DNA of 60,326 bases, counting the filler, from Hausera hauseri (lineage: Eukaryota): assembly GCA_046269625.1 (NCBI GenBank). It is 12 parts of 12 records of this genome, joined end to end, with 100 filler letters (N's around TTAATTAATTAA, not from the genome) between each part and the next. Parts side by side here need not be neighbours in the genome. Positions count along the whole stretch, not along the records: positions 46,174 to 51,200 come from JBJURY010356821.1; 11 more parts are not named here. One strand, written 5' to 3'. Below, one piece after another: positions 21,071 to 60,326 of this stretch. The number at the start of each line of letters is the position of its first letter. The first letter of the stretch is position 1. Made by a program: the position numbers and the translations under genes. Below the pieces are notes generated by a model. It was not told the origin of the DNA and made no database searches. It worked only from the letters and a program-made list of their open reading frames with translations.

Positions 21071-21141
21071 TACCAATACTTGTTTCAAAAAATAGTCAGT
21101 ACCTACCAATAAATGTTTTTCCAACGTTTTCACAATTCAGT

Positions 21142-21639
21142 AGTCGAGCAATCACGATGCAAAATATTCAAGCTGCAATATCCAAGTCAATGGTCGAAAT
21201 CGCTCGTACCCAGGATGAAGAAGTTGGAGATGGAACAACTTCTGTCACAATATTAGCTGGTGAATTGTTGTCTCAAGCGGCACCGTGCTTGGAGAAAAAA
21301 ATCCGTCTAAACCAAAATAATAAATTTATATAGAGAAGCACTCAAAGACGTGTTGGAATTTATGAAACTAATTGCAGTGTGAAAATCAATCCGAATAATC
21401 GCGACGAATTATTGAAAGTTGTCAAAAGCTGTCTTGGTACAAAATTCGTCAACAAATGGTCCAACAGGGCCTGTATAATTGCACTAGATGCAGTTTCAAT
21501 TATCATGACAGATGAAAATGATCGCAAGGAAATTGACATAAAGCGTTATGCCAAAGTAGAAAAGATCCCTGGTGGAAGTATCGAAGATTCCACCGTTCTG
21601 TGTGGTGTAATGTTCAACAGGGACATTGTTCATCCGAAA
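21142..21639 (+). pseudogene. CCT3: T-complex protein 1 subunit gamma fragment
   Basis: [27 protein letters not shown] and [37 protein letters not shown]. Frameshifted, with an internal deletion after NIQAA, and truncated. Confidence 0.92.
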
Positions 21640-22930: not shown

Positions 22931-23649
22931 AGGAAAAGTTTAATACTCAACCAGTTAATCGAGTGGTTAGTCATCCATTTGGAGAAAATTCTAACATCAA
23001 TAATAAACACAAATTGACTTCTAAACATTTGTTATGTAATCCGAATATCAGTGGGTCCTTAGTTGGGCAGGGTTCACGAAACATCAACGCAAATACGTAT
23101 ACGGCTGAAGGCAGTGATGAAGTTCGTCAGATCGTCTATCTGGCTGTCGTACCCAAAAATCATACTCTGCAGTTGTTCTGGACCCATGATTTATAAAAAG
23201 GTCGGTGAATTTGCTACATTTCTATTTCGTAATAATTTGTAATATAATGCCAACCAAAGTAGTTCAAACACTGCACTTAACATCTCTCAGCTATACTATA
23301 CCGTTGGTCAAAAATATATCAGTCGAATCATCACAAACCAAATATATGATCTCCGCTATTAGAAAGATCAGTCATTACAATGCAGGGATCTTGGGTGCGC
23401 CCACGTCTTATGCACCACATTGCGCACCCGACCTCTGACAATTTTACCCCACTTATTTTGTTATTTCAAAACAAACATGCACAAACTTACTACATTTATA
23501 AATTAGCAGCAATTTCAAAATTGTCGGGCATACTACAACTACAAACTGCTTTCACTAATTTCCTTCTCAGCTTTAACGAATTTTTCCTTCAACAATCAGA
23601 CAATAACAAGTTACACCCATTTACCCTCAATACCTATATTGACCGTACA

Positions 23650-25473: not shown

Positions 25474-25537
25474 AGTAGTTGTATAAGGAGGGTTATGGAC
25501 CGTAACGCTCCTTATACAACTACTAGTGGGCGGAGTT
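25461..25537. repeat. Near-perfect hairpin at the contig end with an AGTAGT...ACTACT core
   Basis: 25461-25490 is the exact reverse complement of 25508-25537, and the loop GGTTATGGACCGTAACG is itself quasi-palindromic. Confidence 0.9.
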
Positions 25538-28239: not shown

Positions 28240-29127
28240 CATTAACACTGTAGTAGATGACTCTACTGCCCTCGAAAAGTTCGTCTTATTGGCTGAAAAA
28301 AGCTTTAACATTCTGCAGTCCAATAACTCGCAGCCTGTAGCCGCAGCAACTACTCACACTGCCAGACAACACTTTATTTGCACAACAACTAAACATGATG
28401 CAGAAACAATTTGATACCCCACAACAAGCAATTTCTGCAATCACATCCCAACTCAGCGACTTATCTGTGCCCCGAGGAAGCGAAAATCGTATTTCTCGCA
28501 ATCGAAGTTTTTCCAGGCACTCTTCTCGTTCTAAATCTAGAGATGGTAGGATGACGTGCTTTTATCACAACAAATTCCGCAAAGATGAAAGGAAATGTGT
28601 TTTAGGCTGTCGATTCTACGATGCACGATATGCCGTAGACAATCGAATCTGCATCTATCACGCAAAGTACCAGTCCAAGGCTAGGTCATGCGTGCCAGGA
28701 TGTAAATATTATAAAAGGAATTCTAGTTCTCCATTTTCTTCGCCTCTGCGTACTCACCATTCCTCCTCTTCCTACCAACAAGTCTCAAAAAACCAGTAAT
28801 GCCACCATATTCCACGGCACATTCTGGTACAGGCAATATTGCTGACACTACTGGCCGTTTCAACACGGCCTCTGCAGTCTTTCTGTTGGAAGCTAATCGG
28901 TTACTTAAAGCACATCACACATAGATTTCCTTATTGATTCAGGAGCTGCATTTTCATTTCTTCCATTGTCTTTCGCTCCTACATCCAACACAGTTTTCTC
29001 TACTTTACTCTTCACTGCCTGTGGTCAACCTTTGAACATTGTATGTACCACAAAGCTGTCTTTCTCATTCTACAACCTACCAGGAAAATTTTCCTGGAAT
29101 TTTCACAGCCAACATCAGATCGCCCAT
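28240..29127 (+). mobile_element. Ty3/Gypsy gag-protease fragment (family A)
   Basis: CFYHNKF...CVLGC / CIYHAKY...CVPGC knuckles and FLIDSGA protease motif; ends at ANIRSPI. Confidence 0.88.
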
Positions 29128-29860
29128 AGTAGTAGGAAGGGAGCGCATGAGCACAGTACCAATCCCCTTCCCCCTTGCGGAGGAAAAAATTGATGTGGTT
29201 CGCGGATGAGCCATGGGGTAGAGAAAATGATTCACACATACACGATTAATAGGGCGTAGATAGGAGACACACGGTTATTAAAGTGATACACACAAGCACG
29301 CGTACTGCATGGTTTGTAGGTGGACTTAACATTTTGAATTTCGCGCCAAACATTTTTGTTGTAATTTTGGTTTTGGTGTAAGGTGATTGGTTGATTTGTT
29401 TCAATTTTGTCAGTGAACAAAGTATTTTCTGATCTAATCATGGTTTCACTATTCCCACCCCCTACTTGTTTAAATTTTACAAAGTTGATATAAATACCCC
29501 TGTGTCACCTGAGAAAAAATGTCTCAAAATTTGTCAACATTTAAATGAACACTATGACAGAAGATAAAAAAGTCTTTACAAATATTTATTAATATAACAC
29601 ATACAAACAATGAAATATTTACAGATTCAATACAATAATGTCCATAGGCGACACTTTTATTTTTCGATATCCAGTGTCGTTTGTCATCAAAAGGGTCCAA
29701 AGCTTTCTTTTTGGTACTGATCATCATCAGTTGATGGTTCTTTGTCCCAATCCGTTCTTGATCAACAATTGTCCCACATCCACTTTCATATGCTTGCAAG
29801 TAGTTATCAAAGTGCAAATCCGTTTGTTTCAGATTGATACCCTTGCATTTGAGCACTGGT
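29128..29860 (-). mobile_element. Polinton/Maverick terminus and pPolB C-terminus
   Basis: ORF 29856-29524 has KCKGI...LHFDNY...IGTKNHQL...KKALDPFDDKRHW...SVAYGHY (pPolB end). AGTAGTAGG begins exactly where Gypsy homology stops. Confidence 0.8.
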
Positions 29861-29960: not shown

Positions 29961-31432
29961 GCGGGTGGTGGGATGTTGTCTACAGATGTTTACACTGGAA
30001 TATCTTTGATAATTTTTCGAAGAATTCACTAATAAAATATGGTGTGCGGTCAGTCAATAACTGCTTCGGTGTGCCTAGTACGGCCACAACATAATAAAAG
30101 AATGTTTCGGCTACCGTATGACTAGTCATATTTTTCAAAGGTATTAGAACAACATATCTTGAATAGTAACCAACAAGTGACAAAATGTATTTATATCCTG
30201 ATTCCGATGTTGGAAACGGTCAAGAAATATCCATCGAACAAACTTCCATAGGTTGTCGTGCTTCGAGAAGACTTCCTAAAATGGCTTTGCACGGAATCCT
30301 CTATCCTTTATGGTAGCACACATTTTGAAAAAACGTACCCATCCCTCAATGTTTGTTCATTTGAGGCCAATAACATTTTGTGGCAATGCGTTTCAATGTC
30401 TTGTTTAACGACGGATGACCCGCTAAATGTGAGTCATGTTCTTGCAGCATAACTGCTTTGATTGTTGAATTGGGTACAATAATTAGCTTTCTTTCACCAA
30501 CTTTAAGTTTTAGTATTCCATTTTCAATGTCTAAATGTTCCTTACGTCCGTAAAATTTCTGAATATGACTTGATACTTGATCAACCGTTTGTCCATTTGT
30601 TAAGTTTGACTTGGACAATAAATGGATCTTGATTTTGTAAAGCTTCGATATTTCGAACCTGAATTTGCTTTTGTTTCTGTAACATGTCATTAATAATTTT
30701 CTCATTTAATTGTTTCTTCTGTCTTGTGGTTTATGAACGGCAGCAACTATATTTTCATAAGGTAATCTAGAAATTGCATCTGCGTCTGCATTGTCCTTTC
30801 CTGGTCGATATCGATATTCGATGTCATAATTCAAAAGCTCTAGCTTCCATCTTCGGAGTCGGCTTGATACATGTCTATTGTCTGAGCGCAAAGAAAGTAG
30901 TGCTTTATGATCCGTGAATATTATGACTTTGACCATAGACATAATATTCATAATGTCGTAGTCCGTCACGTATTGATAATAATTCTAATTCCGTGGTAGA
31001 ATATTTCTTTTCGGCGTTATTTAGACTTCGTCCTCCATATGCAATTACATGCTCAGTTGTCTCTTCTGGACACTGTTGAGCCAAAATGTAACTAATAGCT
31101 TTAATGCTGGCGTTGGTTTTCAGAATAAACAAGAGTGAAAAATCCGGATATCGTAATGTGGGTGCTGATGCTAGACGTCTTTTTATTTCATCAAATGCTT
31201 CTTGATTTTCTTCCGTCCATTCCCACTTCTGATCCTTTCGAAACAATTTATACTGGGGTTGGTTAATTTCTACAAAATTCTCAATAAACGTAGGATAAAA
31301 TCCTCCCACTCCTAACCAGGCTCTCATCTCATGTACACTGGTTGATGGAGGATATTCCAAGATTATGGATATTAAATCTGAACTGGTATATATGCCTTGG
31401 TTTGAAACAACAAATCCAAGATATTTGACTTC
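29961..31432 (-). mobile_element. Ty3/Gypsy pol pseudogene (RT thumb, RNase H, integrase), family B-related
   Basis: EVKYLGFVVS, LRYPDFSLLFILKTNAS, IAYGGRSLNNAEKKYSTTELE, TDHKAL, EHDSHLAGHP...YWPQM and PKQLLTDR. Confidence 0.92.
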
Positions 31433-31890
31433 TGTTGGTATTGTATATGGTGCCAACAATATTCTAGTAAGTGGTTCGACGTAACGGATATCATTATTAT
31501 ATTTGATAGGTATTTCTGAATCACAGTGTATCTTTGATTAAGGATAATTCCAATCTTTTACACTTGTATGTGAAAAGTACTTCTAGGACTCTGCTCTGGA
31601 TTCCTTCGCCGAACGAGAGTTATCATTGTCATTTCTGGATTTGACGCACAGATGGCTAATCGGTTTCTCAACGTTTCAAAGTTTGCCTAGCAGAAATTCT
31701 GAATTGTTTCGGAATACACTTCTATTGTTTTGTGGGTCAAATAAAATAAGACATTTCTATTTGCGATGTAATCGGCAATGTTCACCAATTGAGCCCTGTC
31801 GGTTAATGAATTGTCTGTTTGTACAATTTCTTTTTCCGATTTTAAGAGTTTGTATTGGGCAAAAGCCCTGTATAGGCCGCACAATACAAG
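31433..31890 (-). pseudogene. Chuvirus-like glycoprotein, central fragment
   Basis: VNIADYIANRNVLFY...SNPEM...GEGIQSRVLEVLFTYKCKRLEL...HCDSEIPIKYNNDIRYVEPLTRILL aligns by eye with the glycoprotein at 34727-35100. Confidence 0.8.
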
Positions 31891-32779
31891 TTCTAAAATC
31901 CAGTCGTAAAACGACTGGTGAAAACTTGGGGAAACAACAACTCCAGATTAGGTTTGTTGTAATAAATTTAGGTTGATGTAGGTGATCTAGACGTCGTGTG
32001 TAGGTGGAGTTGGACTCCACACCATATAAGAAGTTGGCAAAGATGTCCTCGACGCTGTGGTATTTGGTTGCGGTTGTTTTGTCTGTTTCAAGACAGCATT
32101 TCAATAAATCTTCATTTCGGTTGTCTTTGTCATCATCACGGCTGCTGCTGCCGCTGCTTGTTGGTTTCGTTCTTGAATCGCGTGAGTCATCAGCAGAGAA
32201 GCTGTATGAATATGAAAAGAATATTAAAGAAATTTATCAGGAAATTATCGGCGTTCATGTCTGCATCCATTCGGTTGAATTCGCATTTGATATCTGATAG
32301 TGACTATGGGAATTATCGTTGACAATAAAACAGGTTTGTCCACCATGTGAAAATGATGAAGTGTTAATGACGGTATGACCGACGGAAATCGTGTGCTGAT
32401 GAGCTGTCGTCAGTTGTTATGGGACCTTGTGGTGTAGTCGAGTCGATGGACAAGTTCCATATTAAATTGATGAATGACGCGTTGGTCGTAATTCCTGCAA
32501 TCTTCATCAGTGTCGGTTGATCGGCGAATAAATCGGACAATTATGGCAGATCGCCCATTCGATTTGTGGTTGGTAATGATATCGCAGTCGCAGCTGCGAT
32601 TGCTGATGACGACGACAGCAATGCGAATTTGTTGATGTTTGTCGCTTTCCCTTTTTTTAAAAGTTAAACTGTTCTTTTGGACTGTAGATTTAAATAACCG
32701 GGTTTAAATCCACAGATTTTTGCTAATGATAATGTTCTTAGGCGAATTCATGATTTTTTAGTATTTGAATTTGTTTTGA

Positions 32780-33520
32780 TATTTGATTTTGTAAAGAAAA
32801 GCTTTACAACGATATAAAATAATTTTCATAGTTTGTACTAAATACTTGTTCACATTTTGTAATCAAGTCTTGTTGTATAAACTTAACACCTTGGATATTT
32901 TTAGATATTATAATTTTGGTTTTTACTTCATCAATTACTTCACTATTTGTATTTTCAACATTTGTTTCATAATGTCGTGCATGACGTTTTCCCGTCGTTG
33001 CGTTAGATTCGCCTTTCCGGATTTGTACTAATGCAATCATAACTTTTAGGGGTTGTGCAGTATCGTAGACGTTCTTGTGTGACAATATCCTATTCTAATT
33101 TACAGAAGGGAACATCCATTATCGTATTCGTGTTTGTTTCAAAGATGAAGGTATTTTCTTTGATTTCAACATCATACTGATCGTGTACAACCGATTTTGA
33201 AATAACTCCTTTACCTGTATCGAAATTGCCTCCTTTGCCATTTCCTTTTCATCTTTATGCAACAATTCATTTTTCTTGTTGAGTTACTTGATCTCTGCAG
33301 TTAATAAGATGTCACCTCACTTCAATTGTTGGGTTTCACCTGCGTCTCGACAATATGTGAGATTGACCGACACGTATCTAGGCATTGTTGTTGGTTTGAT
33401 AGCGGAAACATGATGTAGATGACCGCAGTAGGTAATAGTACGGGATACTCGTAGTGAACACTAATCCTTTTATATGATGTGTGGATTTGTCATAATAAAT
33501 ATACGAATTTTGTGTCGTAA
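32780..33520 (-). pseudogene. Chuvirus-like glycoprotein, N-terminal ectodomain fragment
   Basis: SRTITYCGHLHHVSAI (cf. chuviral RTIYYCGMHSHVSAV), GGNFDTGKGVISKSVVHDQYDVEI...FCKLE, and GVKFIQQDLITKCEQVFSTNYE (cf. GLKFIKKEMMTRCDKVMFATNYE near 34614). Confidence 0.8.
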
Positions 33521-34319
33521 TTCCTAATTTCTTCGGAAGTGCGTCCGGGCGAGATTGTAAATTCATTAGAGTAATAACTTCCTTCATAAACTTTGTCACA
33601 ATTGTATGTTAGTATGGTTCCTGATTTCTTAAAATTTGAGAATAATGCCAATATGAATAGGATGAGTTGTAAGAAGAATCCATTAGTTTTAGTTCCGACA
33701 CTTCAGCATTTCTTCCTGAATGTTTCATCATTTTATCCATAACAATGGGAACAGCTTCTTGTGAGGAATTCTCTGTAATTTCGAAAATAGCCTTTTCTAA
33801 TGTTGTTTGTTCTGCTTCTGGATGATTTTCGTTTTCATTTCGTAAGAATAAGACATTCCATTTGCCGTATTGTGATATGATCGATTTGCTAGCCTGGATT
33901 ATTTTTCCAGTTGTAATTTTAAGTCAGTTTCGTTGTTTCGGATATAAGTAGAATTATTACTTTCTCAAGGTTTCTGCGCGATGGCGCCTCTAAAATGAGT
34001 TGGGTAATGTCTTCAAAAGTAAAATTTTCCCATTCCAAATTTTTAGTGGTTTTTCACAAATTTGAATTGCTCTTTAACTTGTTTCTTCCATTTTGGAGAA
34101 TGGAGGATTATCGGATCTTTGCTTGTATCGACATAACATAGCTCGCTAGCTAATTTTGCATTTTTGCATTCCTTGTACAGTTTTGGCGTTTCGAATTCAA
34201 TTAGTTGATCCGCAGTTTTTAGCATTTGTTATTGTTTTATTTCGTTTACATCGCTCATTTAGGTAAAGTTTTCTTTACGATTGGTTATACCACTTCTTGG
34301 CCATCAGTGTCAGTGTTTG

Positions 34320-34471
34320 GCTTGTTCAGTGTTTGGTAGTCTAACCTATAAGTCTTGATTATCGTATTTGATAAATGGTTTGTTTAATGCCGTACAGTTT
34401 CGAATTCCTGTTGGTATTGTATGTGGTGCCAAAAATATTCTGGTTATTGGCTGAACATAACGAATTTCATC
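34320..34471 (-). pseudogene. Additional chuvirus-like glycoprotein fragment
   Basis: DEIRYVQPITRIFLAPHTIPTGIRNCTALNKPFI...VRLPN; a paralog of 31433-31500 that continues further into the glycoprotein. Confidence 0.7.
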
Positions 34472-34571: not shown

Positions 34572-35744
34572 ACGGAACACCCGACACCGACTATATTTAT
34601 TTCCGACCCGCACGGACTAAAATTTATTAAGAAAGAGATGATGACACGCTGTGATAAAGTAATGTTCGCCACAAACTACGAAGCGTTCTTTGTGCCGAAA
34701 CAGAAATAAACGCGAGAACTTACAAATTGAAAACGCAAGACGTTCGGATTGAGGACTACCTGAAAAATAGGGACGATTATTTCTACTGTAAAGGACAAGT
34801 CGGAATAACAGAATTATATCATAAAATGATAATGAATGATAATAAGAACTATAATGGCTCTTATATACGCAAATCCAGAATTAGCTTCTCCAATAATTTC
34901 CATGAGAGAAGGAATTTTCGGTCGAGTTACGGGCGAAGTATTACTAACCTATGAATGTGAAAAAAGAGAACTACCTATCAGCGTAGAAGAAAAACGTTGT
35001 ATCCAAGAACTTCCTGTTATTTACCAGTATACTCCAAGATTAGCTACACCATTGACGAGAGTGTTGTTGGATAGCGCGACACAACTGATCATTCTTAAAG
35101 ATTGTAAATCAGGCTTAGGAGAACCAATGTTTCGACGTAGCGAAACAGACTGGGTTAGTTTACCTAATGGAGATATCACTGCTGCTCCTAACAAGCTAAC
35201 AGGGACGAATCTTGCGAAGGGTATTACAGACGATAAATTTCAAGACATCTCGTCAAAAGGTATATACAGACCAAAAGAAATTGAAGCCTTCAGACAATTC
35301 CCCGCCTTTCCACGACAACGAACACATGAGCTAAATCGAGCTATGGCGTCTGTAGTAGACGATACACGATATCAAGCTAAATGGGAATCATTACTTGGCG
35401 TAAACCACTATCAAAGAGTGACAACAGAAATACTCTATAAAATTTGGGGAAGATTTTTGATTTTTGGACAAGCCGCATCAGGATTTTTAGCGATATACTT
35501 TCTGATACAAATGATTAAGTCGGTTATCCAAGCCGTGATAAACGGATATGAAATATTTACACTAACCGGATTTTTATGTAAAATTCTGACTGCAATCATA
35601 ACGCCTTTTGGAAAATTCTTAAAAGCATATGAGGAAAGTAGATGGAAATCGGACGTAGAACGTCATGTCGGTTACTATAATCGTAAACGAAGAGGGAGAC
35701 CGTTATTCCTACAAAAGCGGAAGTATACAAAACCTATTATATGA
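34572..35744 (+). CDS. Chuvirus (Jingchuvirales)-like envelope glycoprotein, C-terminal half
   Basis: GRVTGEVLLTYEC...CIQELPV...ATPLTRVL, SSKGIY...IEAFRQFPAFPRQR and IWGRFLIFGQAASGFLAIYFLIQMIKSVIQAVINGYEI mirror chuviral G (VAGEVIHIVKC...CYxQLPV...TPRTHIL, TSGIY...LRDHIMFPAE, WxKFLxFGxxSAG...IxHGYAL). Confidence 0.85.
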
Positions 35745-38700
35745 AGAAATAATTCAGATGATGACGAGCCTAAGGGAGGAGAAGCGCTTGTAGGAATAAA
35801 TAGACATAAGATGTACTCCGTCATGAAAGCGCCATTGCCCATGTTACCTCCTACCGCTCCATTCTACGAAGATTGCGACAAACGATCCATGAGCTCATAT
35901 CAAACGGAAATCTATAAAAGAACAATTAATGTCGAAGATCCTTATGAAGGAACGAAACGTTACGGAATTCTACGGAAAATGTGCTACCGACAATCCGCAG
36001 ATGATCCCAAAGTGTTTTATTCACCGAGAGAATCTAAAAATATCGAAACTAGATCTACGGTTTGGGACAAACCCAGATTTAAAACCTTCCAACATACTGA
36101 ACTACATACCAACAATCGAGAGCCGCTAATCAGTACTCACGAAATGGAAGAACTGCATGTAAAAAACAATGAATTATATTCCGACGAAGAATTAAGACAG
36201 TTATCGGGAAACATAGTATCCGCCCCAGAAGTACGAATAAACGGACACAAAATATCAGTAACTAAATGTATGAAAATAGCATCGAATTGTTTCGGAACAG
36301 TGATCGAAGGAAGACCGTTCGCCAAAATCACTATTGAGGATTGGGAAGTTTATGCGTCAAGTTTATACATCAAAAATAATTCAATACCTCAAACGCTAAG
36401 AGGACAGTTATATCCGCCGTCTACGAAAGATCCGGGTAGTATAGGAGCTTTTGGCCAAATGTCAAAACCAATGTTTAAATGGAACCCAGAAGTTCATTTA
36501 GTTTGGCAAACATTTCGACACAAATTTGCGATCATGGAACAATTAACTGACGACGTTGTTCTAGGATGCAATTTATTGAAAAGGTTACCAAATATAGCAG
36601 TCGACCTACAAACAGGAAAATTAATAGAAATCAGGCTCAATAAAGGTGTGAAAAACTCTAATAATAGAAAATTTGGGGAAGTGTGGATACCAGTAGACGA
36701 GAATATTCCACCAAGAACGGAAATAATAATTTATGCACAAATTCAGCAAGATGACGATCATCCAGTATACTTCGAACCAAAGGAAACGTTAAATCCAAAT
36801 ATAACGCTCAGTAATGTACTTACGAGAGTACATTCTGGTCGTGTGCCGATCAGAATAGCGAATAATGCACCAACTCCTATCAAATTCCATGCTTATACTA
36901 CTCTAGGAGATACGTATAGAGTATCGTCAATAACCATTGAAGAAAAGCCTTATAAGTATGCCGAATTTCCGCCTCATGTTGAAACTAAGTTCTGCCCGGA
37001 ATTCTACTATCGATTTTATGAATTATTATGCCACTATAAATCAATTATTGCTAAGGATAAAAATGATAGCGGTAGAGCAAAAGCGTTAAAACTGACTGTT
37101 CCGCTCAACAAAAAGCATGATTCAAATGAAGAAATAGATTTGGAGGATCAGAAGATTCCGAAACAATACCCTCCACCACATTCGCTAAGACTTGAGTAAA
37201 CAAAGGAAGTCGAACGAATGCTTAAGGCCGATATAATTATGCTCAGTTACAGATCCTGGTACTCGCCTATCCTTATGGATAAAAAGAAAGGCACCATGAA
37301 GCACCGATTTTGTATCGATTATAGAGCTCTAAATAATCTTATGATGAAAGATTCTTTTTTAATGCCATTAGTGAAAGAGGCCTTAGACAGACTCTCAGGA
37401 GCAAAATAATTTACCACTCTGGAACTACAATCCGAATATTGGCAAGTGGAAATAGAGGACGAAGACCGCTATAAAACAGCGTTTAAAACACACGATGGCG
37501 TTTATGAATTTAACGTCATGCCGTTCGGTATTACTATCGGATTAGCCATATTTACAAGAATGATGAACAAAATGTTAATGGGACTGGATCATGCCTTTGC
37601 GTATTTAGATGACGTGATAATAGCATCGAGAACAGAAGAAGAACACTTAAAGGATATTGAACACGCACACTGATGAGATTGGAACAAGCCGGATTGAAGT
37701 TAAATCCGAAGAAATGCAAATGGGCTCAAAATGCAATATCCTACCTGGGTCATATAGTTAGAGAAGAAGGATCGAAACCAGATAAATCGTTATTGAACAA
37801 AATATCAGATTGCATGGAACCACAAAATCAGAATGAGTTAAGACACTGGTTAGGTCTCTGCGGATATTATGCAACATATGTGCCGGATAATTCAAAGATT
37901 AATTCACCTGTATATCGTCTGCTTAAAAAAGGGATTAAATGGAAATGGACAGACGTGGAACAGAAAGCTTTTGATGAGAGGAAGAAGATATTAACAAGCG
38001 AAACCGTTTTGCGATATCCAGATTTTAGCTTACCCTTTATAATCAAGACAGACGCCAGTAAAGAAGGCATTGGTTATGAATTAGCACAGAAAAGAATATG
38101 AAGAATTAGAACACCCGATTGCTTATGGAGGACGTTCCTTAAAAAGGCCGAGAAAAATTATTCTGTTACCGAATTAAAAACTCTAGCCGTAAAAGAAGCA
38201 CTACGCCATTTCAACGTTTACGTATACGGACAGAAAATTATAATTGTTACCAATCACAATGCTGTTACGACCTTAAGGGCCGAGCAAATAATCCGACATG
38301 CAGGCTTAATAAATGGATCGAAGAAATCTCCAGATATAACATTGAATTTCAGTATATGCCAGAGAACAAACATGTAGACGCAGACGCCCTATCGAGATTA
38401 AAGATTAAAACAAGCGCAATCATTACAATGAAGAAAAGTCAACTTGAGGAAGTAATAGACCGCCAAAGAGCGCTAACAATGGATAAGGCCATTAAAATTT
38501 CAACTGAACAAAGAAAGGATAAGGTCGTCCAGCAGATTATAGAATTCGCCAAGAAGGATGTCGTACCAAGAGGACGAGAGTTAAAGAAGCATTTAAACAG
38601 ACTCGGACATAAATATTGCGTCTTGAATAACAAGAGTAAAGAAGATATTTTATATTACGAGCGAAAAGGAAGGAAATTGATAGATATCCCAAAGAGTTTA

Positions 38701-39780
38701 CGAACCGAAGTGCTGATGTCAGAACATGATTCATACTTAGCCGAACACATGTCCTGGAAGACATTAGAAAGAATAATAAACAAGTACTTTTGGCATAGTA
38801 TCTATATTGATGTGAAAAATTGGGTAAATGCCTGTGAAGTGTGTGCAACTAAGCAGAAAAAGACGAAAAAATACATGGCCGAGTTAAAACGAATTGATGT
38901 ATCCGATAGGCCCATTTAGGCCATGTCGATGGATATCGTAGGATCTCTTCCTACGACTCATAGGAACAATAAGTATATGTTAACGTGCGTCGATCGCCTA
39001 ACTCATTTTGTCAAAGTGGTAGCATTGGTTGATCAGAAGGCGGAAACTTTAGCAGAAGCAGTAGTAAGAAGAATCATTTGTCGATACGGACCACCTGACC
39101 AAATATTAACGGATAGAGGTAGAAACCTTACCAGTGAACTTTTCGAGAAGATTACCAAGATATTTGAAATCGAACGATTAACCACTACCGCATATCATCC
39201 TGAGTGTAACGGGATGGTAGAAGGCATGAATGCTACCATCATACGTATATTATCAACAGTTGTGGCAAAGGGCCAAAAGGATTGGGATGGATTTTTAGAA
39301 GGAACTCAATTTGCGATTAATACTACACCACATTTAGTAACAGGATTTACACCATTTTTCATGATGTATAGTTGTGAAGCTGTGTTACCTGCAGACTTAG
39401 TAATGACGCCATACACAGTCAGTCTCGAAGATTTGGAGCAGAACTTTGCAGAAGTATTGCAGACACGATTACAAAAATGTTGGGAAATTGCCAAGGAGCT
39501 ATTTTAAAAATATCAAGAACAGTTTAAAAAGCAATATGATAAGAAAGCGAAACCGCACGATCTAGAACAAGGAAACTGGGTTTATGTACATTATTCGGTA
39601 GCCAAAAAAGGCACCTCACTAAAATTGACTTGTACGGGTAGAAAACCGTATGAAGTCACCAGAGTCACGCCAACCACAGTGTATATTAGCAAGAATGGAA
39701 AAGAAGAAGTTGTGTCAATACAGAGAGTTGTCAAGACAGAAATGCGACCCAGCAAACGTTATAATTTACGCCAACGTTGG
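35745..39780 (+). pseudogene. Linker plus Pol (protease, RT, RNase H, integrase) of family B copy 1
   Basis: VVLGCNLL (protease end), RFCIDYRALN, KTAF...MPFG, AYLDDVII, IKTDAS, HVDADALSR, H..H...CEVC, MDIVGSLP, ILTDRG and HPECNGMVE. Confidence 0.95.
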
Positions 39781-41211
39781 GTAAAAACATCCTCAATAGT
39801 TACTAGACCAATATCATATGTTCAGATAGTTTTAGCATTATCACTAATTGCCTCCTACATCCCAAGAATACAAGCGCAATGGTGGCATGATGAATCCACA
39901 TTAGGAGATATATACGGAATTCGGAAGAGTGGATCGAAATCGGAAGCAGATAAAACGGAGAAGAAACCAACAGCCGAACAAATTCAAAGACAAGAAGATA
40001 CTAAATTGTTACAATCGATGATAATTCACTATTATTCGCCAAACGCAGTATGATCGGATTTAAGGTTTGGAGGCCACACCTTGATTTTGGAAAGTTTCAA
40101 ATTGTCTTATTTGACCTAACCACAAAAGCAATGAAAAATTGTAATTTCGAACCTGGAGAGAATATCCAGTGCTGCGACAGATTTTGGACGCACGTATAAC
40201 CTCACCTATCGTCTCTACTTGCCAGACTCATCCGAAGTTTATCTTGAAACAAAGCCACATTCACAATTAATTATCCCTGCATGGAACAGACATCATGGAG
40301 TAAAACTTAATGAAATATTACGATCTACTGACCCAGATATAAGAATATTAAACGAAAATATCCAGATAATCTCTGTGAATAAGGACAAACAATGCATTCA
40401 AGTAGACGCTAGAACAGGATTAACTTTTAGTCAGGAAATTAGTATTACGTTTGAAGCAACAGATGGACTGACCCCAAAAATAGAATATTGTTCTATTCGA
40501 GCAGGCGTACAAAGTCCATGAAGTAAAATACCCGTAAACCAAGAATTCAAGATAAGATTTGACTTATATGAAGTACGGCCTAATAAATCAAGTGTACAAC
40601 TTCGAACTTACTATCCAGAAAATAAAATTTGGAAAATTTTAGTAGAGACAACCACCAGAAGACCGGCAACTCAAGTTAATACCGTTACGACAACCGTTAC
40701 GTCGGCCAGTGTGCCGAAAAGAGAATTAGGAAGCATTCCTATTAGATATTCGGTATATCGGTCTAAGATTGTGTTCTTTGTGGAAGGAAAACAAAATTAC
40801 AATATACATAAATTGTCGGACAACGTATAATAATCAAGCTGTGACATTATTTAAAAATACTTATCAGAGTGCAATTTATTAAAACCACAAACCAAGTATG
40901 TAGTACAAGTATACGCAGAGAATAAGCAAAATCAGACTGTTACATTGCAAACTTTAGATGAGATTCGCGCAGAATCCCATGCATACGAGGATATAGATGG
41001 ACAGATCACAACTCCGGTCACCACACAAGCCCCAATGGGATTAACTACGCTACCAATCGTATCCATCTCCATATTGTCAACATTTGTTCTCATATTAATC
41101 GCGATTTTTCGGCTAGTTACCAAAAACTGCTATTCTAAGCGTTCTGAAAACTCAGAGTGGGAATTAAGGAAACTGGAAACCTCTGTTGATCCGTATGATA
41201 AAATAACCTGA
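39781..41211 (+). pseudogene. Type-I membrane protein fused in frame after integrase (signal peptide, FN3-like domain, Thr-rich stalk, TM, short tail)
   Basis: After RYNLR: YVQIVLALSLIASYIPRIQA (signal-like), TTTRRPATQVNTVTTTVTS, LKPQTKYVVQVYAEN (FN3-like), IVSISILSTFVLILIAIFRLV (TM) and tail YDKI. ORFs 38923, 39625, 40219 and 40945 share one frame. Confidence 0.7.
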
Positions 41212-41540
41212 CAACTACAGAGCGGGTTATTCTATCATCTAATAAAGAATTGATTTAATTTTAAAACTATCCTTTGTCGTAAGATTAATCCTTACTGTTT
41301 ATTTTTCAGACTGATGAGTAAAGAAAGAAATACGGAAGCAAACACCGGACGACCTAGGATCGACGTATCACAATCTACCCAAGAGTCAGAACAATGTAGT
41401 ATCGATAAATCGCCGAAACGCCGATTTAGTATCGACGAATTCTTGCAGAATTATGCTACCATCTTCCTCCCAAATTCTAAATCGATATATAGAGAAATAC
41501 ATAACGTACTACATGAGAAAACCTTCGTGAAGTATGATCG

Positions 41541-46173: not shown

Positions 46174-49100
46174 TACAAGAACTTCCAGTAATATATCAGG
46201 ACGTACTGAGGTTAGTAACACCAATTACCAGAGTGTTGTTGACAAATGCCACTTAACCGACAATTTTTAGATACTGTAAAACCAGCTTAGGAGAGCCAAT
46301 GTTCAGACGTAGCGAAACCGACTGGGTAAGTCTACCTAACGGTGGTATTATCGCACCACCTACCAAACTGACAGGAACAAACTTAATAAAATGAATAACC
46401 GATGACAAATTTTAGGATACAGCTGCAAAAGATATTTACCGACCAAAAGAAGTAGAGGCGTTTATACAATTTCGCGCTTCTCCCCGCCAACGTACTCATG
46501 AATTAAACAGAGCGATGCATACAATATTAGAGGACTCGCGCTATCAGGCGAAATGGGAGTCACTACTTGGAGTTGGCTATTACAAGAAGGTAACTACAGA
46601 AATATTATACAAAATATGGGGAAGATTTCTGATATTCGGACAAGCCGCGTCAGTATTTCTAGCAATATACTTCTTAATTTAACTAGTAAAAGCTATAATT
46701 CAAGCAATCATAAATGGATACGAGATATTTACCTTAACAGGATTTTCGTGCAAAATTTTAACGGCTATTATTACACCTTTCGGTAAATTCTTAAAGGCTT
46801 GTGAAGAAAGTAAATGGAAAACAGATGTAGAGCGACTTGTGGGCTACCACAATCGAAAACGTAAAACACACGTATTTGATTATAGACAGAAATTCATAGT
46901 CAGTAAGACACAAAAAAATAATTCGGATGATGACGAGCATAAGAGAGGAGACATCATCACCAGGCCGAGTAAACACAAAAAGTACTCTGTTATGAAATTA
47001 CCATTACCAGTAATGCCACCAATGGCACCTATAGATGAAGATTGCGAGAAACAATCTATGAGCTCGTGTCAGACAGACGTCTATCGCAAGCCATTTAATA
47101 TAGAGGATCCCTACGAAGGAACAAAACGCTATGTGATATTTAGCAAGATCCACGAAACAGAGAGGACGTCTGCCCCACACCATCGATCGGCAATAGACAA
47201 CCACGGTATAATTTACTCACATAGAATACCTAAGCCAAACGAAACGCAATCGATATTTACTCGAAGCTGCAAAGCATGAAATCTCCGAAAAACACATGTT
47301 CAGCCTCCAGTCAGAAACCCAAGAGTAGAAAACGCGAATGGAACGAATAACGAACTATATCCAATTGGAGAGTTAAGACAGTTTGTCGATCAGCCAGTTG
47401 GAACCACTGAAGTTACCATCAACGGCTATAAAGTGTCTACGATACGACAACCCAAGGTAGAGCCAAGCTATTACGGTACAGTAATCGAATGAAGGCACTT
47501 CGCAAAAATTCAATTGGGGGATTGGGAGGTTTATGCACTAATAGATACATGATCTGAAATATCGCTGATAAAATATGATTCAATACCACAATTCTTACGG
47601 AAACAATTATATTCACCTCCCACGACAGACCCAGGAAGCATTGGAGCTTTCGGACAGTCGTCGAAAAGCAAATTCCGTTGGAAACCAGAAATTCACATAA
47701 TGGGACAATCTTTTCGTCATGAATTCTCGGTAATGGAGCAACTAACGGATGACGTAGTGTTACTGTGTGACTTATTGAGACAACTGCCCAATATAGCAAT
47801 CGATTTCAATGCAATCAAGTTGATAGAACTTGGCCCAATAAACGGAGTTAAAACCACTAAAGATAGGAAATTTGGAGAAGTGTAGATTCCAGTGGATGAA
47901 ACCCTATCACCCAAAACAGAAATCCTAATATATGCTCAGATACGTCAGGATGACGATCAGCCAATATATTTTGAACCAAAGGAATCGCTCGATTCAAACC
48001 TCGTACTCAGCAATGTTTTGACAAGAGTATCAACGGGTCGTGTACCAATCAGGATAGTCAATAACGCACCAATTCCGATCAATCTGTACGCTAATACCAC
48101 TTTGGAACACATGTGGAGAGTATCATCAATCACTATTGAGTAGAAACCATATAACGGTGCCGAATTTCCACCCCACGTCGAGACTAAGTTTTCACCAGAA
48201 TCATATTGTCAATTTTACGAATTACTTTGTCATTATAGTTCAATTATTGCGAGAGATAAAGAAGACATTGGCCGAGCCAAAACCTTAAGGCTTACGATTC
48301 CGCTTAAGAAAAATCCCGGATGTAACGACGAAATAGACTTAGAAGATCAAAAGATTCCAAAATAGTACCCTCCTCCACACTCGTTAAGACCAGAGATAAC
48401 CAAAGAGGTTGAACGAATGTTAAAGGCAGACATAATTAGACCATGCTACAAATCTTGGTATTCACCGATACTCATGGTCAAGAAAATAGGTACTATTAAG
48501 CACCGATTTTGTATCGACTATTGAGCACTAAATACACTTATTATGAAGGACTCTTTTCCTTTATCATCAGTAAAGGAAGCTCTGGACAGACTTTGGGAAG
48601 CTAAATGGTTTACCACTCTTGGCTTGCAATCAGGATATTGGCAAGTGGAGATAGAAGAAGAAGATTGTTACAAAACGGCATTTAAGAGACACGACGGCAT
48701 ATATGAATTTAATGTTATGCCTTTCGGAATCACCAATGGACCAGCTATTATCACCCGCATGATGAATAAGATGCTAATGGGACTGGCACATGCATTCGCC
48801 TATTAAGATGACGTCATGATTGCCTCGAAAACGAAAGACGAACATTTAAAAGACATTGAAGGTACACTCATGAGGCTGGAACATGCTGGACTAAAACTGA
48901 ATCCCAAGAAGTGCAAATTGGCTTAAAATGCGGTATCGTACCTTGGACATATAGTTGGAGAAGGAAAATCGAAGCCAGACAAGTCATTACTAAATAAGAT
49001 ATCGGACTGCATGGAACCTCAGAACCAAAAGAAATTAAGACATTGGTTAGGTTTGTGTGGGTATTATGCTACTTACATACCGGACAACGCGAAGATACAC

Positions 49101-51200
49101 GCACCTTTGTACCGCTTATTAAAAAAGGAAATCAAATGGAAGTGGACCGATATCGAACCAAAGGTTTTCGATGAAATAAAGTACATTTTAACTAATGAAC
49201 CGGTTTTAAGATATCCTGACTTCAACCTGCCGTTCATAATCAAAACGGATGCCAGCATGGAAGGCATCGGATATGAACTGGCTCAGAATCGAGAAGACGA
49301 GGAGTTAGAACACCCGATCGCATATGAAAGGCGTTCTCTAAAGAAGGCTGAAAAGAACTATTCCGTAACAAAGCTGGAAACATTGGCAGTGAAAGAAGCA
49401 CTGCGACACTTTAACGTGTATGTCTATGGACAAAAGACTGTAATCGTTACCGATCATAAGGCAGTCACGATCTTAAAAGGTAAAGCGAATAATCCAACGT
49501 GTAGACTAAATATATGGATAGAAAAATTTTCACGTTACAATATTGAATTTCAATACAAACCCGGAAGTAAACATGTCGATGCCGACGCATTATCGAGACT
49601 TAAAACCAAAACAAGCGCAGTTACTGTAATGAGTAAAGCACACCTCGAAGATTTAGTAGAAAGACAACGGAATTCGTGCTGGATAAAGCATTAAAGATTG
49701 CTGTCGAACAGAGAAAAGACAGGGTTATACAACAGATTATCGAGTTCGTTGATACCAACGTAACACCCAAGGGTCATATACGGAAACACCTACGACGATA
49801 TGGTCACAAATACTGCGTCGCTGGAGATTGGAACCATGAAAAAGTGTTATACTACGAACGAAAAGGACGAAAATTGGTAGTCATACCAAAAGGAGTGCGC
49901 ACAGAAGTGCTTTTAGCCGAACATGATTCATACTTAGCTAGACACATGTCGTGGAAAAAGACATTAGAAAGGATATTAAATAAATATTATCGGCCGAGTA
50001 TTTACATTGATGTGAGAAATAAGCGCAACCAAACAAAGGAAAGTGAAAAACATATCGACGTGCCCGATAGACCAATGCAAGCAATGTCTATGGATATTGT
50101 AGGGCCATTACCTACAACTCATAAGAAAAAAAATATAGTTTGACCTGTGTAGATCGACTGACTCATTTCATCGAGCTTGTAGAGTTACTAGACCAAAAAG
50201 CCGAAACCTTGGCAGAAGCCGTAGTTCGCAAAATCATTTGCAGATACAAGCCACCCGAACAAATCTCGACAGACAGAGGAAGAAACTTCACGAGCGAATT
50301 GTTCGACAAAATTACCAAAATTTTTGAGATTGTACGGCTAACTACTACGGCTTATCATCCCCAATGTAGTGGAATGGTTGAGCCAATGAACGCAACAGTT
50401 ATACGAATCTTATCGACAGTAGTCGCACAAGACCAGAAAGATTGGGATGAGTTCTTAGAAGGTACACAGTTTGCTATTAATACTACGCCACATCCTGCAA
50501 CAGTACTTACTCCGTTTTTTATGATGCATGGCAGAGAAGCTGTATTACCTACAGATATAGGACTGATTCCATACACAACAAGAACGGAAGATTTGGAACA
50601 AAATTTTGTCGAAGTATTACAATCAAGATTGCACAAGTGTGGGGAGATAGCCAAGGAAGTATCTAAAGAATACCAGGAACAATTCAAGAAGCAATACCAT
50701 AAGAAAGCTAAACCTCACGATTTAGAACCCGCAAATTGGGTTTATGTACACTATCCAGTAGCAAAGAAAGGAATATCTCTTAATTTTACCAGGACAGGCA
50801 CAGGACCTTATGAAGTTACCAAGATTACGCCGACCACAGTCTATATAAATAAAAATGGCAAGGAAGAGGTCATATCAATTCAGAGATTAGTTAAAACGGA
50901 AATAAGACCGGATAAATGCTATAATTTGCGTTCGAATAAAGTTAATAAGGAAAGGAAAACATCGTCAATCGTAACCAAACCGTTACCGTATGTCCAAATA
51001 ATTCTTGCCCTATCGTTAATCGCTTCATGTGTACCCAAGGTGACATCAATAACTAGAGCCGAAAAACTACGATACGCGATGAAACGCAGGGATATCCAGA
51101 ACATGCAATCACTTAGAGTACATGATATGGATTGGAGCAAACCATGTGCATGGTTTGAAGCAAGCGAACCTATTCAGAGCCACGTAAAATTTCAAATAAT
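46174..51200 (+). mobile_element. Envelope-bearing Ty3/Gypsy retroelement (family B), copy 2
   Basis: Glycoprotein C-terminus (QELPVIYQ...IWGRFLIFGQAAS, 46174-46830) continues in frame via NNSDDDE into the protease ALIDT*SEISLI (about 47535-47570), then RT, RH, IN, RSNK and the signal-like YVQIILALSLIASCVPKVTS. Confidence 0.92.
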
Positions 51201-55715: not shown

Positions 55716-55985
55716 ATTTTGCCAGAGAACTAAACAAACGAAACGGCGAAGCACGTACACTCGCAGCTTCTCTTTTGTAACAAGAAAGCATTCTTAAGCA
55801 TATTGTAATAAGAACATTCCGAACATCTTTTTCTGTGAGTTTAGCCATAAGACTAGCTAAACCATCCATAGCAGCATTAATAAGTTTATCATCCGTACCC
55901 TGTCTATCATCCATTCCCATCAGCAATGTCGAAATTAATGATGTAGAATGTTTCTGAACTAAAGCATCTGTACATTTCCCAAAAG
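55716..55985 (-). pseudogene. MROH1: Maestro HEAT-repeat protein fragment
   Basis: KHSTSLISTLLMGMDD...AAMDGLASL...DVRNVLITICLRMLSCYKREAASVRASPFRLFSSL resembles MROH1 LLTAMIGGLDD...EAMLGLARL...AIRIRPFFDSE...RTASIRLFGHL. Confidence 0.7.
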
Positions 55986-55989
55986 TTCA

Positions 55990-56860
55990 GTTGGCTTGAA
56001 ACTTTCTTTTATTATAATGTGATGAATAAATTTTGGCAGACGAATGAATAAGGCCATCATCGATATTATTACGACAACGATAGTTATTCGATCTTCTTGT
56101 TGCGTTTCGTTGACAATGACAAAGTTCTTAATGGAATTTTTATATTTTGTTACGTTATCGTTTGTTACCGGCTTTCTCGACAAAGGAATTCCCTTTTCAC
56201 CATATAAAACAATTATGGCAATCAATGCGAACAGAATGGCAATCAACGGACCAAAATATTCCAATGGAACTTTTAACCAATGCGTTATTAAATTATAATA
56301 AAATTCATAATTACCAGCTTTAGTTAAAAATACCGAGTACTTTTTGTGCGATAACAGTTTCGGAGTTAATTCGAAAATTTTCAGAAATGTAAACGCGAAC
56401 AGTAACAGCATGATAATAGCGATCAGTGTAATGGATGCCTTCACTGAAAATATAAGTTTGGCATGTTTTTCCATGTTGTTGATATAAATAACGTTCGACT
56501 GTCGGACAGACAAGAATCCAGGAACTTGAAACTTCCAGAAATGATTGAAGTGGAACGAAATATAGAACTGTAATGGCAACATACTTAGCATAGGTAGTTT
56601 TTTGTTTTGTATACGAATAATGAAAAATGGCACAGTCGATGTAAATGGATAGGAGACTGAGTAATAAGTCACACGTTGCAATAGCTGATAGAAGTATGTC
56701 TGTTCCATGTTTGTGACCGTAGAATGTGAATGATGGTAAATACGAAATATTCATAACAAATGCCACTAAAAAATAGCTAAACTGATGATACCAAGGTATG
56801 TATAATTATATGGCCCTGACCAATTTGGAAAACAAAACCAAACATCGAAGCAGTTATTCG
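55990..56860 (-). pseudogene. Class A (rhodopsin-like) peptide GPCR, frameshifted and truncated after TM6
   Basis: ILLSAIATCDLL (TM2), SSWILVCPTVERY (TM3), YFGPLIAILFALIAII (TM5) and EDRITIVVVIISMMALFIRLP (TM6), split over ORFs 56766-56320 and 56708-55959. Confidence 0.8.
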
Positions 56861-57269
56861 GAATTACTTTCGTAGTTGACCAGTAACTTGCTCGTTTAGC
56901 TGATTGACACGTTGGTCATTGCAGGGAACGGGGTCTGACCATGAGTTATCATCTCGTACCCTACAATGTCGTACGATCAAACATCTGATTTTATTGTGAT
57001 CTTCGAAACTTTTTTGAGATATTTGTCTCGTCAATTGATTAGTTGTATTTGACAACGATAAACCAGACATTGACCATTCGTTTGGATAAAGGTAACTTGA
57101 TGAATAAAATTGAGCGGTAGCAACACTTGACATAACTGTTCATAAAATTGGGTAAACTTATAGGGAAAATTAATGGAACCATATCTTGCATACTATGGTC
57201 GTTTAGGAGAGTAACTTGACGTTCTGACTTGATATTAACATCGGAGTTTTCGATACATTCATTTTTTGG

Positions 57270-57373
57270 GGCAGAAAATCGGGGCCTGCCTATGTGCCCG
57301 ACGCGCCGGCAGCAAAAATCCGGCCGTGCCCACCCGAATGGGCCAGAGGGCGCCGGCCGCTGTGGGCACCACA
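57270..57373 (-). repeat. GC-rich LTR fragment
   Basis: The minus strand begins TGTGGTGCC at 57373, the same start as the LTR at 14338; it is a sharp GC-rich island. Confidence 0.5.
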
Positions 57374-57399
57374 AGTATAGTCTACCAAATTCAAAATTT

Positions 57400-59690
57400 G
57401 CAAGACGACAATGCAGCCCTACATCAAGCCATATAGGCCATCTCTAGCAAAATTGACGCTTTGGCTCTGCCGCATCGTGGTCGTTTTATAGCGGATCGAA
57501 GCAGACAGTCGTCCGCAAACTCTAAGCACGTCCAGTCACCTTCGCGACAAATGGTGTGTTATTATCACACCAAATTCAATAGAAATGCCAAAAAATGCTG
57601 TATAGGCTGCAAGTTCTATACGCAACGTTTCCAGTCAGACGATGCGGTCTGCATATATCACAATAAGTTTAAAGACAATGCAGAACGCTGCTTATGTGGA
57701 TGTAAATTTAACACTCCGAAAACTCCAATATCTTCATCTATTCAATAAAACGTCCAAAGCCGCCAGAAACCACGGCGAATTCTGGCAAATGTCATTTTTT
57801 CCGTTTTGACTGCCGTACTTCTACCAATAGCGTTTTCTTATTGGATGCTGCACTCACATCTTTTCTTCATCACTAAATTCATGATCGATTCAGGTGCAGA
57901 TGTTTCATTACTACCTTCATCTTTCACATCACCAAAAATGCTCTCTACGTTTACTGAACTTTTCACCGCAAATGGGGAAACATTAGGTATTTTTGGTGCC
58001 GTAGAAATGTCTTTCACCCTGCCACATTTTTCTGATGTCTTTCAATGGAAGTTCATTGTTGCAGATATTAAAACACCAATTTTAGGGTCTGATTTTTTAT
58101 CGCACTACAACTTACTAGTTGATTGCAGGCAACACCGTGTGATTATAAGTACAATCAATTATACAAGAGCACAAAATTTTGCACCACTTGTCGCGCAGTT
58201 GGCTGTAGCGCCGAAATCTATATTAAAGAAATCTGTTATCAAATCAGATAAATTGACTGTTGATAACTCCGATTGTGACGCCTCCATTCATGCAGTAACA
58301 ACACAAACAATTGCCAACACCGACACAACCTCTCACCTCACCTCACCATTAATGCAACTAGATACAGCTCTTCGTGACTACATTACAATTTCGTGTCCTA
58401 GAACATTGAAGAAAGACCCAAATTTCAAGCCTGCTTCTACGAAATACCATCACATTGTCACTGAACACCAAAGACCAATTAAACAGAAGGTTAGGCCACT
58501 TTCTCCACGCAGACGCAAAGCTGTGAAATTGGAGTTCAATGAATTAGGAAAGGTAGGAATTAGAAGAAGATCAAAGTCACCTTTAGCCTCACCTCTACAC
58601 GTAGTGCCCAAGAAGGGCGGTACCTTCAGGCCCTGTGGTGATTATCGCCAATTAAACACCATTACGATAGTGGACGCATATCCATTACCGCTCATCAGCG
58701 ATATTTTACACAGACTCAATTGCAACACCATATTTTCATCCATCGATCTTCATAAAGCCTACCATCAGATTCCTGTCTTACCTGCTAACATACCAAAAAC
58801 AGCTGTGACAACACCATTCGGCCTTTTTGAGTATGTTTTCATGCCGTTTGGTCTACGTAGTGCCTATCAAACATTTCAAAGGCACATAGATACAATTCTC
58901 GCTGGTCTAAACTTTGCATTTCCTTACATAGATGACATTCTCATAGCTTCGACATCTCCTAAGCAACATTCTGAGCACTTACGCATCGTTTTTCAATTCC
59001 TCCACCAAAATAATTTAGAAGTAAATTTCGCCAAGTGTTCCTTTTCCAACACAAGATCCATTTTCTTGGTCATGTTATCATTAAATTTGGCCACTCTCCT
59101 TAGCAAGACCGCATAACTCAGCTTACGAACATCCATTTGCCACTAACAACAACTGAAATGCGCTGTTTTCTTGGCACACTCCACTTTGTTCACAAATATG
59201 TGCCACATTACTCTGAGTTAACCGCACCTTTTGCCTCTTTATCATCTGAAAAGAAGAAACAACTAATTCACTGGATTCCCAAACGTGTCAACCAGTTTGA
59301 CCATTTACATAAAAGTTTAAAAACTGAAAATTCTAGCGTACCCCAAGCCTGACACAGAGTTAATATTAATCACAGATGCCTCTACCACAGCAGTCGGCGC
59401 AATACTGCATAAAATTTCTAATGTCGTCAACGAGCCTCTGGAATTTTATTCTCGGAAACTTACACCACCAGAGAGCTATTAGCTATAGTATTAGCTATAA
59501 AACACTTCTCGCATTTGTTAATTACCAGGTCTTTCACAATCCAAACTGACTACAAACCTCTCATTTACATCATGGATATGAAAACTCCTTCACCTCGACA
59601 AGAACGTCACATATCGTACTTGCCGACATTCAATTTTAAAATGGTACATATTTCAGACACTGACAATTTGGTCGCCGATTTTTTGTCGAA
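57400..59690 (+). mobile_element. Ty3/Gypsy gag-PR-RT-RH (family A), partly intact
   Basis: Double CHCC knuckle, FMIDSGADVS, ASPLHVVPKKGGTFRPCGDYRQLN, KTAVTTPFGLFEY, PYIDDILIAS, TDAS and RQERHISYL. Confidence 0.95.
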
Positions 59691-60326
59691 ATCGAATAAA
59701 GAGTTGGATTCTTATCTTCAACAGCTGGTGTTTCATCAGTTGGTTGATTTATTATCTCAGTCTGTCTGTGAATTGATTTCTTAATTAAGTATAATTCTTT
59801 TGTTACAGGTTTCAGAAAATGTTGTATCGCTTCTTCTGTTGAGGATGGAAAGGTGTATAAAGATATAGATATTTATCTTCAATGGATGGTTGATGTTCAA
59901 CCGTTTGTTGATCTTTTATCCTGTCAATTGATTTATTAATTAAGTGTAGTTCTTTTGTTACAGGTTTCTGAAAATATCGTATCTCTTCTTTTGTTAAAAT
60001 GTTTTGATTTTTAACTTGCATTTCTTGCTTATTATATTCATCATAATTTTTAATCACTTTTATTAATAATTTTCCTTGAATTTAAATAATTTTCCATCTT
60101 AAAAGGCAATAAAGTAAATTGCTCAATTTTTGGGCAAGGATTGAGAACTACTCCCTGTCCTTCGCTAACCTCACATTTACATCCGCCTTTAAATGTTTTT
60201 AATACTTTGTAAAATGTTTCTTTTCACCATTAGATAAAGAAACATCTTGTTTTGCCCTTTGGTCCCTCCCATGAGAAAAATTTAATGAAAAATTAATATT
60301 CAAATTTTCATCTGATTTTTCGGTGT

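Follow-up and report, generated by a model that had tools for sequence, protein, structure and literature searches.

Decayed gypsy-type elements with an envelope glycoprotein in frame upstream of the protease, likely divergent relatives of Burro, in a Hausera hauseri assembly

The closest described counterpart of the elements analysed here is the planarian “Burro”, in which env follows gag and precedes pol within a 4,873-aa ORF, in the same frame, matches the fusion glycoproteins of mononegaviruses (called there the first such case), and is preceded by BCL2-like, BIR, and MATH domains, according to the main text of Arkhipova and Yushenova (2019, PMC6431247). Gypsy elements of the GAG-ENV-POL type with a gB-type env are described from Nematoda, Bryozoa, and Platyhelminthes in the main text of Chary and Hayashi (2026, PMC13524379), which also cites the nematode NERVs as metaviruses with env before pol.

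An in-frame layout with env before pol is already known, and the family examined here is a divergent further member. Sacco et al. are said to have described, in 2022, a single-ORF layout for the nematode NERVs. The two copies considered below are very probably dead gypsy-type (Metaviridae-like) elements, likely compact and divergent relatives of the Burro/GAG-ENV-POL group, in which env in frame upstream of protease, reverse transcriptase (RT), RNase H, and integrase would form with them one membrane-threaded polyprotein.

The window, the whole stretch of DNA that was analysed, comprises 60,326 nucleotides in 12 contigs of 4-7 kb, separated by artificial spacers of the form N44-TTAATTAATTAA-N44. 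Most of these contigs have a GC content of 34-39%, are not depleted in CpG, and abound in transposon pieces. Two of them, with a DNA identity of about 73%, carry the copies A and B. Both begin within the glycoprotein (G), and gag, the LTRs, and the first 250 model positions of G are off-contig in each case; self-comparison of the window detected no terminal repeat, the two contigs ending before the LTR positions. Their parts are as follows.

34572-41540, +, contig of copy A, the partner of copy B
34572..35741, +, A: G, tail included, beginning around model position 250 (PF24664, E 1.2e-31), frame-broken upstream of 34836
35742..39810, +, A: linker, protease, RT, RNase H, and integrase, interrupted by stops and by breaks in the frame
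39811..41208, +, A: decayed post-integrase membrane protein
39811-39861, +, A: post-integrase signal-like segment (hydropathy)
40855-40938, +, A: putative fibronectin-type-III-like motif in the ectodomain (profile of five relatives)
41041-41124, +, A: post-integrase membrane anchor (hydropathy)
46174-51200, +, contig of copy B, separate from that of copy A
46176..46814, +, B: G (env), a fusion glycoprotein of gB/mononegavirus type, of which the contig start leaves the C-terminal third; four in-frame stops
46626..46688, +, B: predicted G membrane anchor, followed by a weaker hydrophobic stretch (hydropathy scans)
46863..47498, +, B: linker joining G tail and protease in frame, about 200 residues, no Pfam match
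47499..47830, +, B: aspartic protease, its active-site motif interrupted by a stop at 47550 (Pfam RVP, E 0.013, below the cut-off)
47841..48290, +, B: conserved protease-RT spacer, at the position of a dUTPase-like domain in Burro
48480..49538, +, B: RT and RNase H in the frame of G (PF00078, E 5e-30; PF17919, E 1.5e-30; PF17917, E 8e-29)
49637..50960, +, B: integrase region after two frame breaks (rve, E 1.7e-9)
50983..51200, +, B: signal-like hydrophobic segment, in frame after the integrase, to the contig end (hydropathy)

The initial annotation had described copy B as a separate contig that keeps the order of copy A and reads continuously from glycoprotein through linker into protease. Both statements hold, as B lies on its own contig past the spacers and every peptide that had been quoted (TAIITPFGKF at 46761, NNSDDDE at 46917, EDPYEGTKRY at 47103, and WEVYALIDT*SEISLI at 47523) is found in the frame 46176+. 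Stops occupy 7 of the 475 codons of this frame in 46174-47600, compared with 43 and 28 when the alternative frames are read, and 14 of 1173 codons up to 49694, compared with 97 and 73. They fall in G, the linker, the protease active site, and RT; two (47277 and 47490) lie in the interval between G and protease and a third (47550) in the active-site motif of the protease. The accompanying claim that point-mutation stops alone, and no frameshift, disturb the reading is correct for 46176-49694 (1,173 codons) and fails farther on, where breaks occur near 49680 and 50125, after RNase H and ahead of the integrase core. The integrase zinc finger of B has, in addition, lost its two cysteines. Copy A likewise shows no break between G and protease, the net A/B indel across the linker being a multiple of three; its breaks are in upstream G, in RT/RNase H, and in the 3' region, the upstream G pieces matching the G of relatives in two frames (E 9e-8 and 9e-5). 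A single linker stop is present in A, at 35742, and six residues are absent at its protease active site. Both copies are dead, and no intact member of their lineage was encountered.

Individual domains of B are recognizable in spite of this decay. Its G matches the Monjiviricetes fusion glycoprotein family (PF24664) with an E of 1.3e-16 over model positions 398-605 of 653 and is 29% identical to the G of the polyprotein P0004 (pairwise E 2e-29), and the hydropathy profile of its anchor recurs in P0004, P0153, and P0156. The protease matches those of relatives (best E 3e-6 among 15 chains) and can be aligned with that of P0004. The spacer that follows matches the corresponding spacers of P0005, P0004, P0160, P0008, and P0153 with E from 3e-10 to 1e-6, with no Pfam match to dUTPase. 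The protease-RT-RNase H-integrase order of Ty3/gypsy (Metaviridae) Pol is present in the window copies.

How the reading from G into Pol was maintained can be addressed by codon comparison of A with B. Because pS exceeds 0.75 in most domains, leaving Jukes-Cantor dN/dS undefined for them, pN/pS is reported here, a measure that overstates dN/dS. Synonymous sites are saturated (pS 0.65-0.96 across the parts, about 0.8), so that A and B represent two subfamilies rather than sister copies. The ratio is 0.14 in G (225 codons; 95% bootstrap 0.10-0.19), 0.27 in the conserved part of the linker at 46917-47135 (73 codons), 0.26 in the protease (104 codons), 0.21 in the spacer (171 codons), 0.12 and 0.09 in RT (166 and 142 codons), 0.16 in the integrase (299 codons), and 0.17 in the hydrophobic segment after it (27 codons); for all conserved parts the range is 0.07-0.27. 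The 46 codons just ahead of the protease give 0.45, and the variable middle of the linker (47136-47360, 65 codons) is weakly constrained at 0.66 (interval 0.44-0.97). In off-frame controls, with the frame moved by one or two bases, values rise to 0.88-2.40. The aligned regions contain 3 stops in A and 11 in B, none of them common to both. Low pN/pS, the lack of common stops, and the in-phase linker indel together indicate that the two lineages diverged while still coding, each decaying later. The initial annotation had predicted ratios well below one in both G and Pol, which is the result obtained (0.14 and 0.09-0.26, respectively), and neutral duplication, which it had named as the competing outcome, is excluded by the values for G and for the conserved linker as set against the off-frame controls.

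Natural chains with the same arrangement are a second line of evidence. A HMMER search with the G-linker-protease region of A returned 280 proteins at E <=0.001. Nine of the 11 best G matches have G followed by an aspartic protease in a single natural chain, the two exceptions being a 203-aa fragment and a chain that stops just past G; the order is present in 11 of the 20 chains scanned among the best 21 matches. In five proteins (P0004, P0005, P0104, P0153, and P0156) G, protease, RT, RNase H, and integrase are all found in one chain, and Gag or a zinc knuckle lies upstream of G in P0010, P0013, and P0104. Taken with the low pN/pS, these unbroken chains bear out the proposal of the initial annotation that two diverged copies sharing the junction point to an arrangement replicated as a unit. 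Judged from sequence, the arrangement would be translated as a single polyprotein.

Pol of B is 35% identical to that of P0004, and among 120 listed matches of a Pol search the relatives are 30-43% identical; none of those 120 has a G match in its chain, chains above 2,053 aa being outside the length window of that search. No match to the G piece came from a PDB sequence search, nor from a word-based protein search among 2,069 longer candidates, and of 180 pattern matches in metagenome contigs and 20 in viral contigs none was confirmed. No RNA data set was listed as carrying the element, which has no bearing on its expression. Quick trees were made from 64 and from 29 of 127 RT-RNase H rows and from 40 of 152 G relatives. 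In the G tree the window pair is placed in a starred set of 16 rows, 11 of them G-then-protease chains, and apart from stand-alone G proteins of about 650 aa. In the RT-RNase H trees the G-bearing relatives form a starred clade with copy B as a long branch outside it; placing B together with that G-protease clade is not rejected (AU p 0.43), in trees from which named Burro sequences are absent.

The relatives show some features of their own. A Bcl-2-like stretch just upstream of G, comparable to that of Burro, is weakly matched by Pfam in P0009 (E 0.001), and a similar motif can be recognized by eye in P0003 and P0016; two to six aspartic-protease motifs per chain, some of them past the integrase, occur in P0003, P0005, P0006, P0010, P0013, P0153, and P0156; the window copies have one such motif each. 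In P0066, immunoglobulin domains are fused upstream of a PF24664 glycoprotein in one chain. P0004 (HBK71150.1), a G-Pol-FN3 polyprotein, is labelled as a protein of a Flavobacteriaceae MAG and almost surely represents animal DNA that was binned with bacteria.

Three other explanations of the arrangement have to be considered. One is that G and Pol were separate genes or messages that share only a frame, divided by a linker stop, by splicing, or by a second start. Each copy does have one or more stops on the way from the G anchor to the protease, and the middle of the linker is only weakly constrained, as noted above. The positions of these stops differ, however, and each is open in the other copy, the net indel of the linker is in phase, and relatives have unbroken G-protease chains, so that this explanation is improbable.

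A second possibility is an ENV-GAG-POL order, with the linker of about 200 residues being a short, unrecognised Gag as in mite elements. From anchor motif to protease motif, the window has about 310 residues, compared with 131-214 in 11 of the 12 relatives in which both motifs were found (14 were examined), and part of this interval is constrained (pN/pS 0.27); ENV-GAG-POL elements of mites are, moreover, reported by Chary and Hayashi in the main text of PMC13524379. Yet Pfam finds neither Gag nor a CCHC zinc knuckle in the B linker, Gag is upstream of G in relatives, and two Medioppia entries in the supplement of PMC13524379 have F-type envelopes. The B linker has no match in the chains of relatives. 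A Gag within the linker is, on balance, very unlikely.

That a chuvirus-like G fossil came to lie beside an ordinary gypsy element and was neutrally duplicated, or that the junction was misassembled, is scarcely credible even with contigs this short and with stand-alone G fossils near gypsy fragments being common in arthropods (PMC10084718), given that the codon comparison refutes it by purifying selection through G, linker, and Pol despite saturated synonymous sites, that the window G groups with G-protease chains rather than with the stand-alone proteins, and that both 35693-35995 and 47345-47638 are spanned, at 44-48 differences, by other contigs of the public run X1. In the same run, which may itself be the source sample and is thus not independent of it, 21,509 contig pieces are at least 85% alike to A and 14,573 at least 80% alike to B. 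These pieces cover 30 of 30 bins over A and B, with single pieces spanning the G tail/linker, linker/protease, and integrase end/3' segment junctions, and their counts point to a large retrotransposon family.

The preferred reading, a gypsy-type element with env in frame ahead of Pol, places the window copies close to several described groups. With Burro/GYPSM1 they share, as far as the main text of PMC6431247 describes it, a mononegavirus-type env in frame upstream of the protease and, with Burro, the protease-spacer-RT-RNase H-integrase order, high copy number, and the presence of decayed copies with stops and frameshifts. They differ in having neither ankyrin repeats (no Pfam match) nor repeated protease domains from G to integrase, and in a Pol identity of about 35% to the nearest relatives. 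The stretch upstream of G, in which Burro has its BCL2-like, BIR, and MATH domains, is off-contig in the window copies. P0153, in contrast, has an ankyrin match between G and integrase, where the window copies have none, and this chain of 4,844 aa with ankyrin repeats looks similar to ORF1 of Burro (4,873 aa), as the latter is outlined in that main text. Like the GAG-ENV-POL errantiviruses of flatworms, nematodes, and bryozoans, the window copies have env before pol and a gB/chuvirus-like env, but those elements are intact whereas the window copies are decayed (PMC13524379, main text). By eye, the closest envelope rows of that paper are those of Schmidtea C1a, which resemble the start of copy A (its first 40 residues) and P0003-P0006 in a FIKK..C..ATNY motif, and the nematode envelope rows in its supplement are unlike the relatives of the window copies. 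Anakin, a BEL/Pao element with a chuvirus G, carries a glycoprotein of the same Pfam family, but its G is reported to lie 3' of a BEL/Pao Pol (Dezordi et al. 2020, PMC7642597), whereas the window copies have gypsy Pol with G on the 5' side; the gypsy-type Pol domains and the position of G upstream of Pol rule out membership in Anakin. One protein, P0049, does have an Anakin-like order, with DUF5641 followed by G.

From these comparisons, the flatworm Burro/GAG-ENV-POL elements are likely kin of the window family, itself divergent and apparently compact, and this kinship suggests a flatworm as the likely host. A search of the window for RNA families, which might have borne on the host, gave no match. 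The published oddity of an env-pol read-through is in this way confirmed in a further, divergent lineage, where the layout works with no giant accessory cargo inserted from G to integrase, and selection has maintained it long enough for synonymous sites to become saturated.

Less familiar than the env-before-pol order is a further membrane protein that these elements encode downstream of the integrase. In both copies the integrase frame stays open into a hydrophobic segment, which in B is 70% identical to that of A over 27 codons, and A runs on for about 450 decayed codons to its last anchor. A signal-like segment, an ectodomain, and an anchor follow the integrase in copy A and in all four G-bearing relatives that extend past it (P0004, P0005, P0153, and P0156), and the same is true of P0160, the best near-full-coverage Pol match among the 120 listed. 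The env section of PMC6431247 mentions no such post-integrase fibronectin-like membrane protein, and the word “fibronectin” is absent from both PMC6431247 and PMC13524379 as far as their main texts go; a literature search, with figures, Repbase, and several primary papers outside its scope, found nothing relevant on a fibronectin domain in such elements.

A C-x-x-L-x-P-x-T-x-Y-like motif, picked by eye from the post-integrase sequences named above, was recovered in 6 of 278 proteins that were retrieved, and all six belong to this clade. A six-frame translation of the window has it a single time, at about 40870. When 810 chunks of the window are scored against a five-relative profile, 40855-40938 comes out on top, but only at E 0.09 and with profile columns taken from an alignment to which the window row itself contributed. 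Pairwise comparison of post-integrase tails gives a best E of 0.008 among the relatives and 0.3-1.5 for the window frames. For one relative, P0160, a fibronectin type III (FN3) fold is predicted from a model of the ectodomain built on a six-row alignment (pLDDT 68), which matches tandem FN3 domains in Foldseek (E 2e-5) and, in VIA, gives a Z of 9.7 and an rmsd of 2.3 over 82 residues in a list consisting mostly of FN3 domains. A single-sequence model of the window 3' ectodomain is unusable (pLDDT 35), and we infer an FN3 fold for the window protein from its relative.

Hydrophobic segments in P0004, P0005, P0153, and P0156 are found before G, after G, after the integrase, and near the C-terminus, an order that fits a polyprotein threaded twice through the ER. 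Gag, off-contig here and present in relatives, would be made first, after which an internal signal would send the G ectodomain into the ER and the G anchor would bring the chain back to the cytosolic side for folding of the linker and of protease, RT, RNase H, and integrase; the weaker hydrophobic stretch past that anchor would lie along the membrane, not across it. A second internal signal after the integrase would then export the fibronectin-like ectodomain, held by the last anchor. The two ectodomains would thus be outside, Gag and every Pol enzyme remaining cytosolic. Cuts made by signal peptidase and by the element's own protease would release capsid, enzymes, class III fusogen, and second surface protein in equal amounts.

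A role of G in fusion is suggested by its family, the class III fusogens. The post-integrase FN3-like protein most likely serves attachment, although a surface protein that modulates the host would be in keeping with its fast divergence too. More tentatively, and with somewhat less than an even chance in our judgment, the elements may belong to a two-glycoprotein, retrovirus-like lineage, in which a polyprotein that threads the membrane twice supplies a class III fusogen and, after the integrase, a fast-evolving FN3 attachment protein, dividing entry between them as in herpes- and paramyxoviruses; the window copies would then be a deeply divergent branch, possibly from a non-planarian host. 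If the FN3-like protein is an attachment factor, it offers a handle on whether and how envelope-bearing elements move between cells, a mechanism of transmission called “elusive” for most elements of the eLife paper in its main text (PMC13524379). The relatives appear to include planarian elements.

The remainder of the window holds other elements and gene pieces. The contig at 41641-46073, with 47% GC, a CpG o/e of 0.52, and a Harbinger-type DDE_Tnp_4 piece, probably comes from an admixed second, vertebrate-like organism. At 946-5058 (+) an ORF runs uninterrupted for 1,370 codons and closes with a BRO1-like domain (E 6e-25); protein searches found no relative of its first 1,000 residues, which may resemble spatacsin, and the ORF is possibly a chimera of host gene pieces. 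A chimeric pseudogene at 21334-22184 (+), adjoining a gypsy gag-like region, joins a TCP-1/cpn60 chaperonin fragment in frame to an N-terminal fragment of an XRN exonuclease that continues past a frame break. Pieces of another gypsy family, with protease, RT, and a gag-like region bearing paired C/H-rich repeats, are spread over four contigs (10967-16390, 21071-25537, 25638-29860, and 55716-60326), and a further gypsy pol is located at 29961-34471 (-). Decayed, Polinton-like pieces of a protein-primed DNA polymerase B (PF03175, E 2e-7) are present at 16595-20019 (-), as are remnants of a hAT transposase (PF05699, E 3e-12) at 7938-9296 (-).
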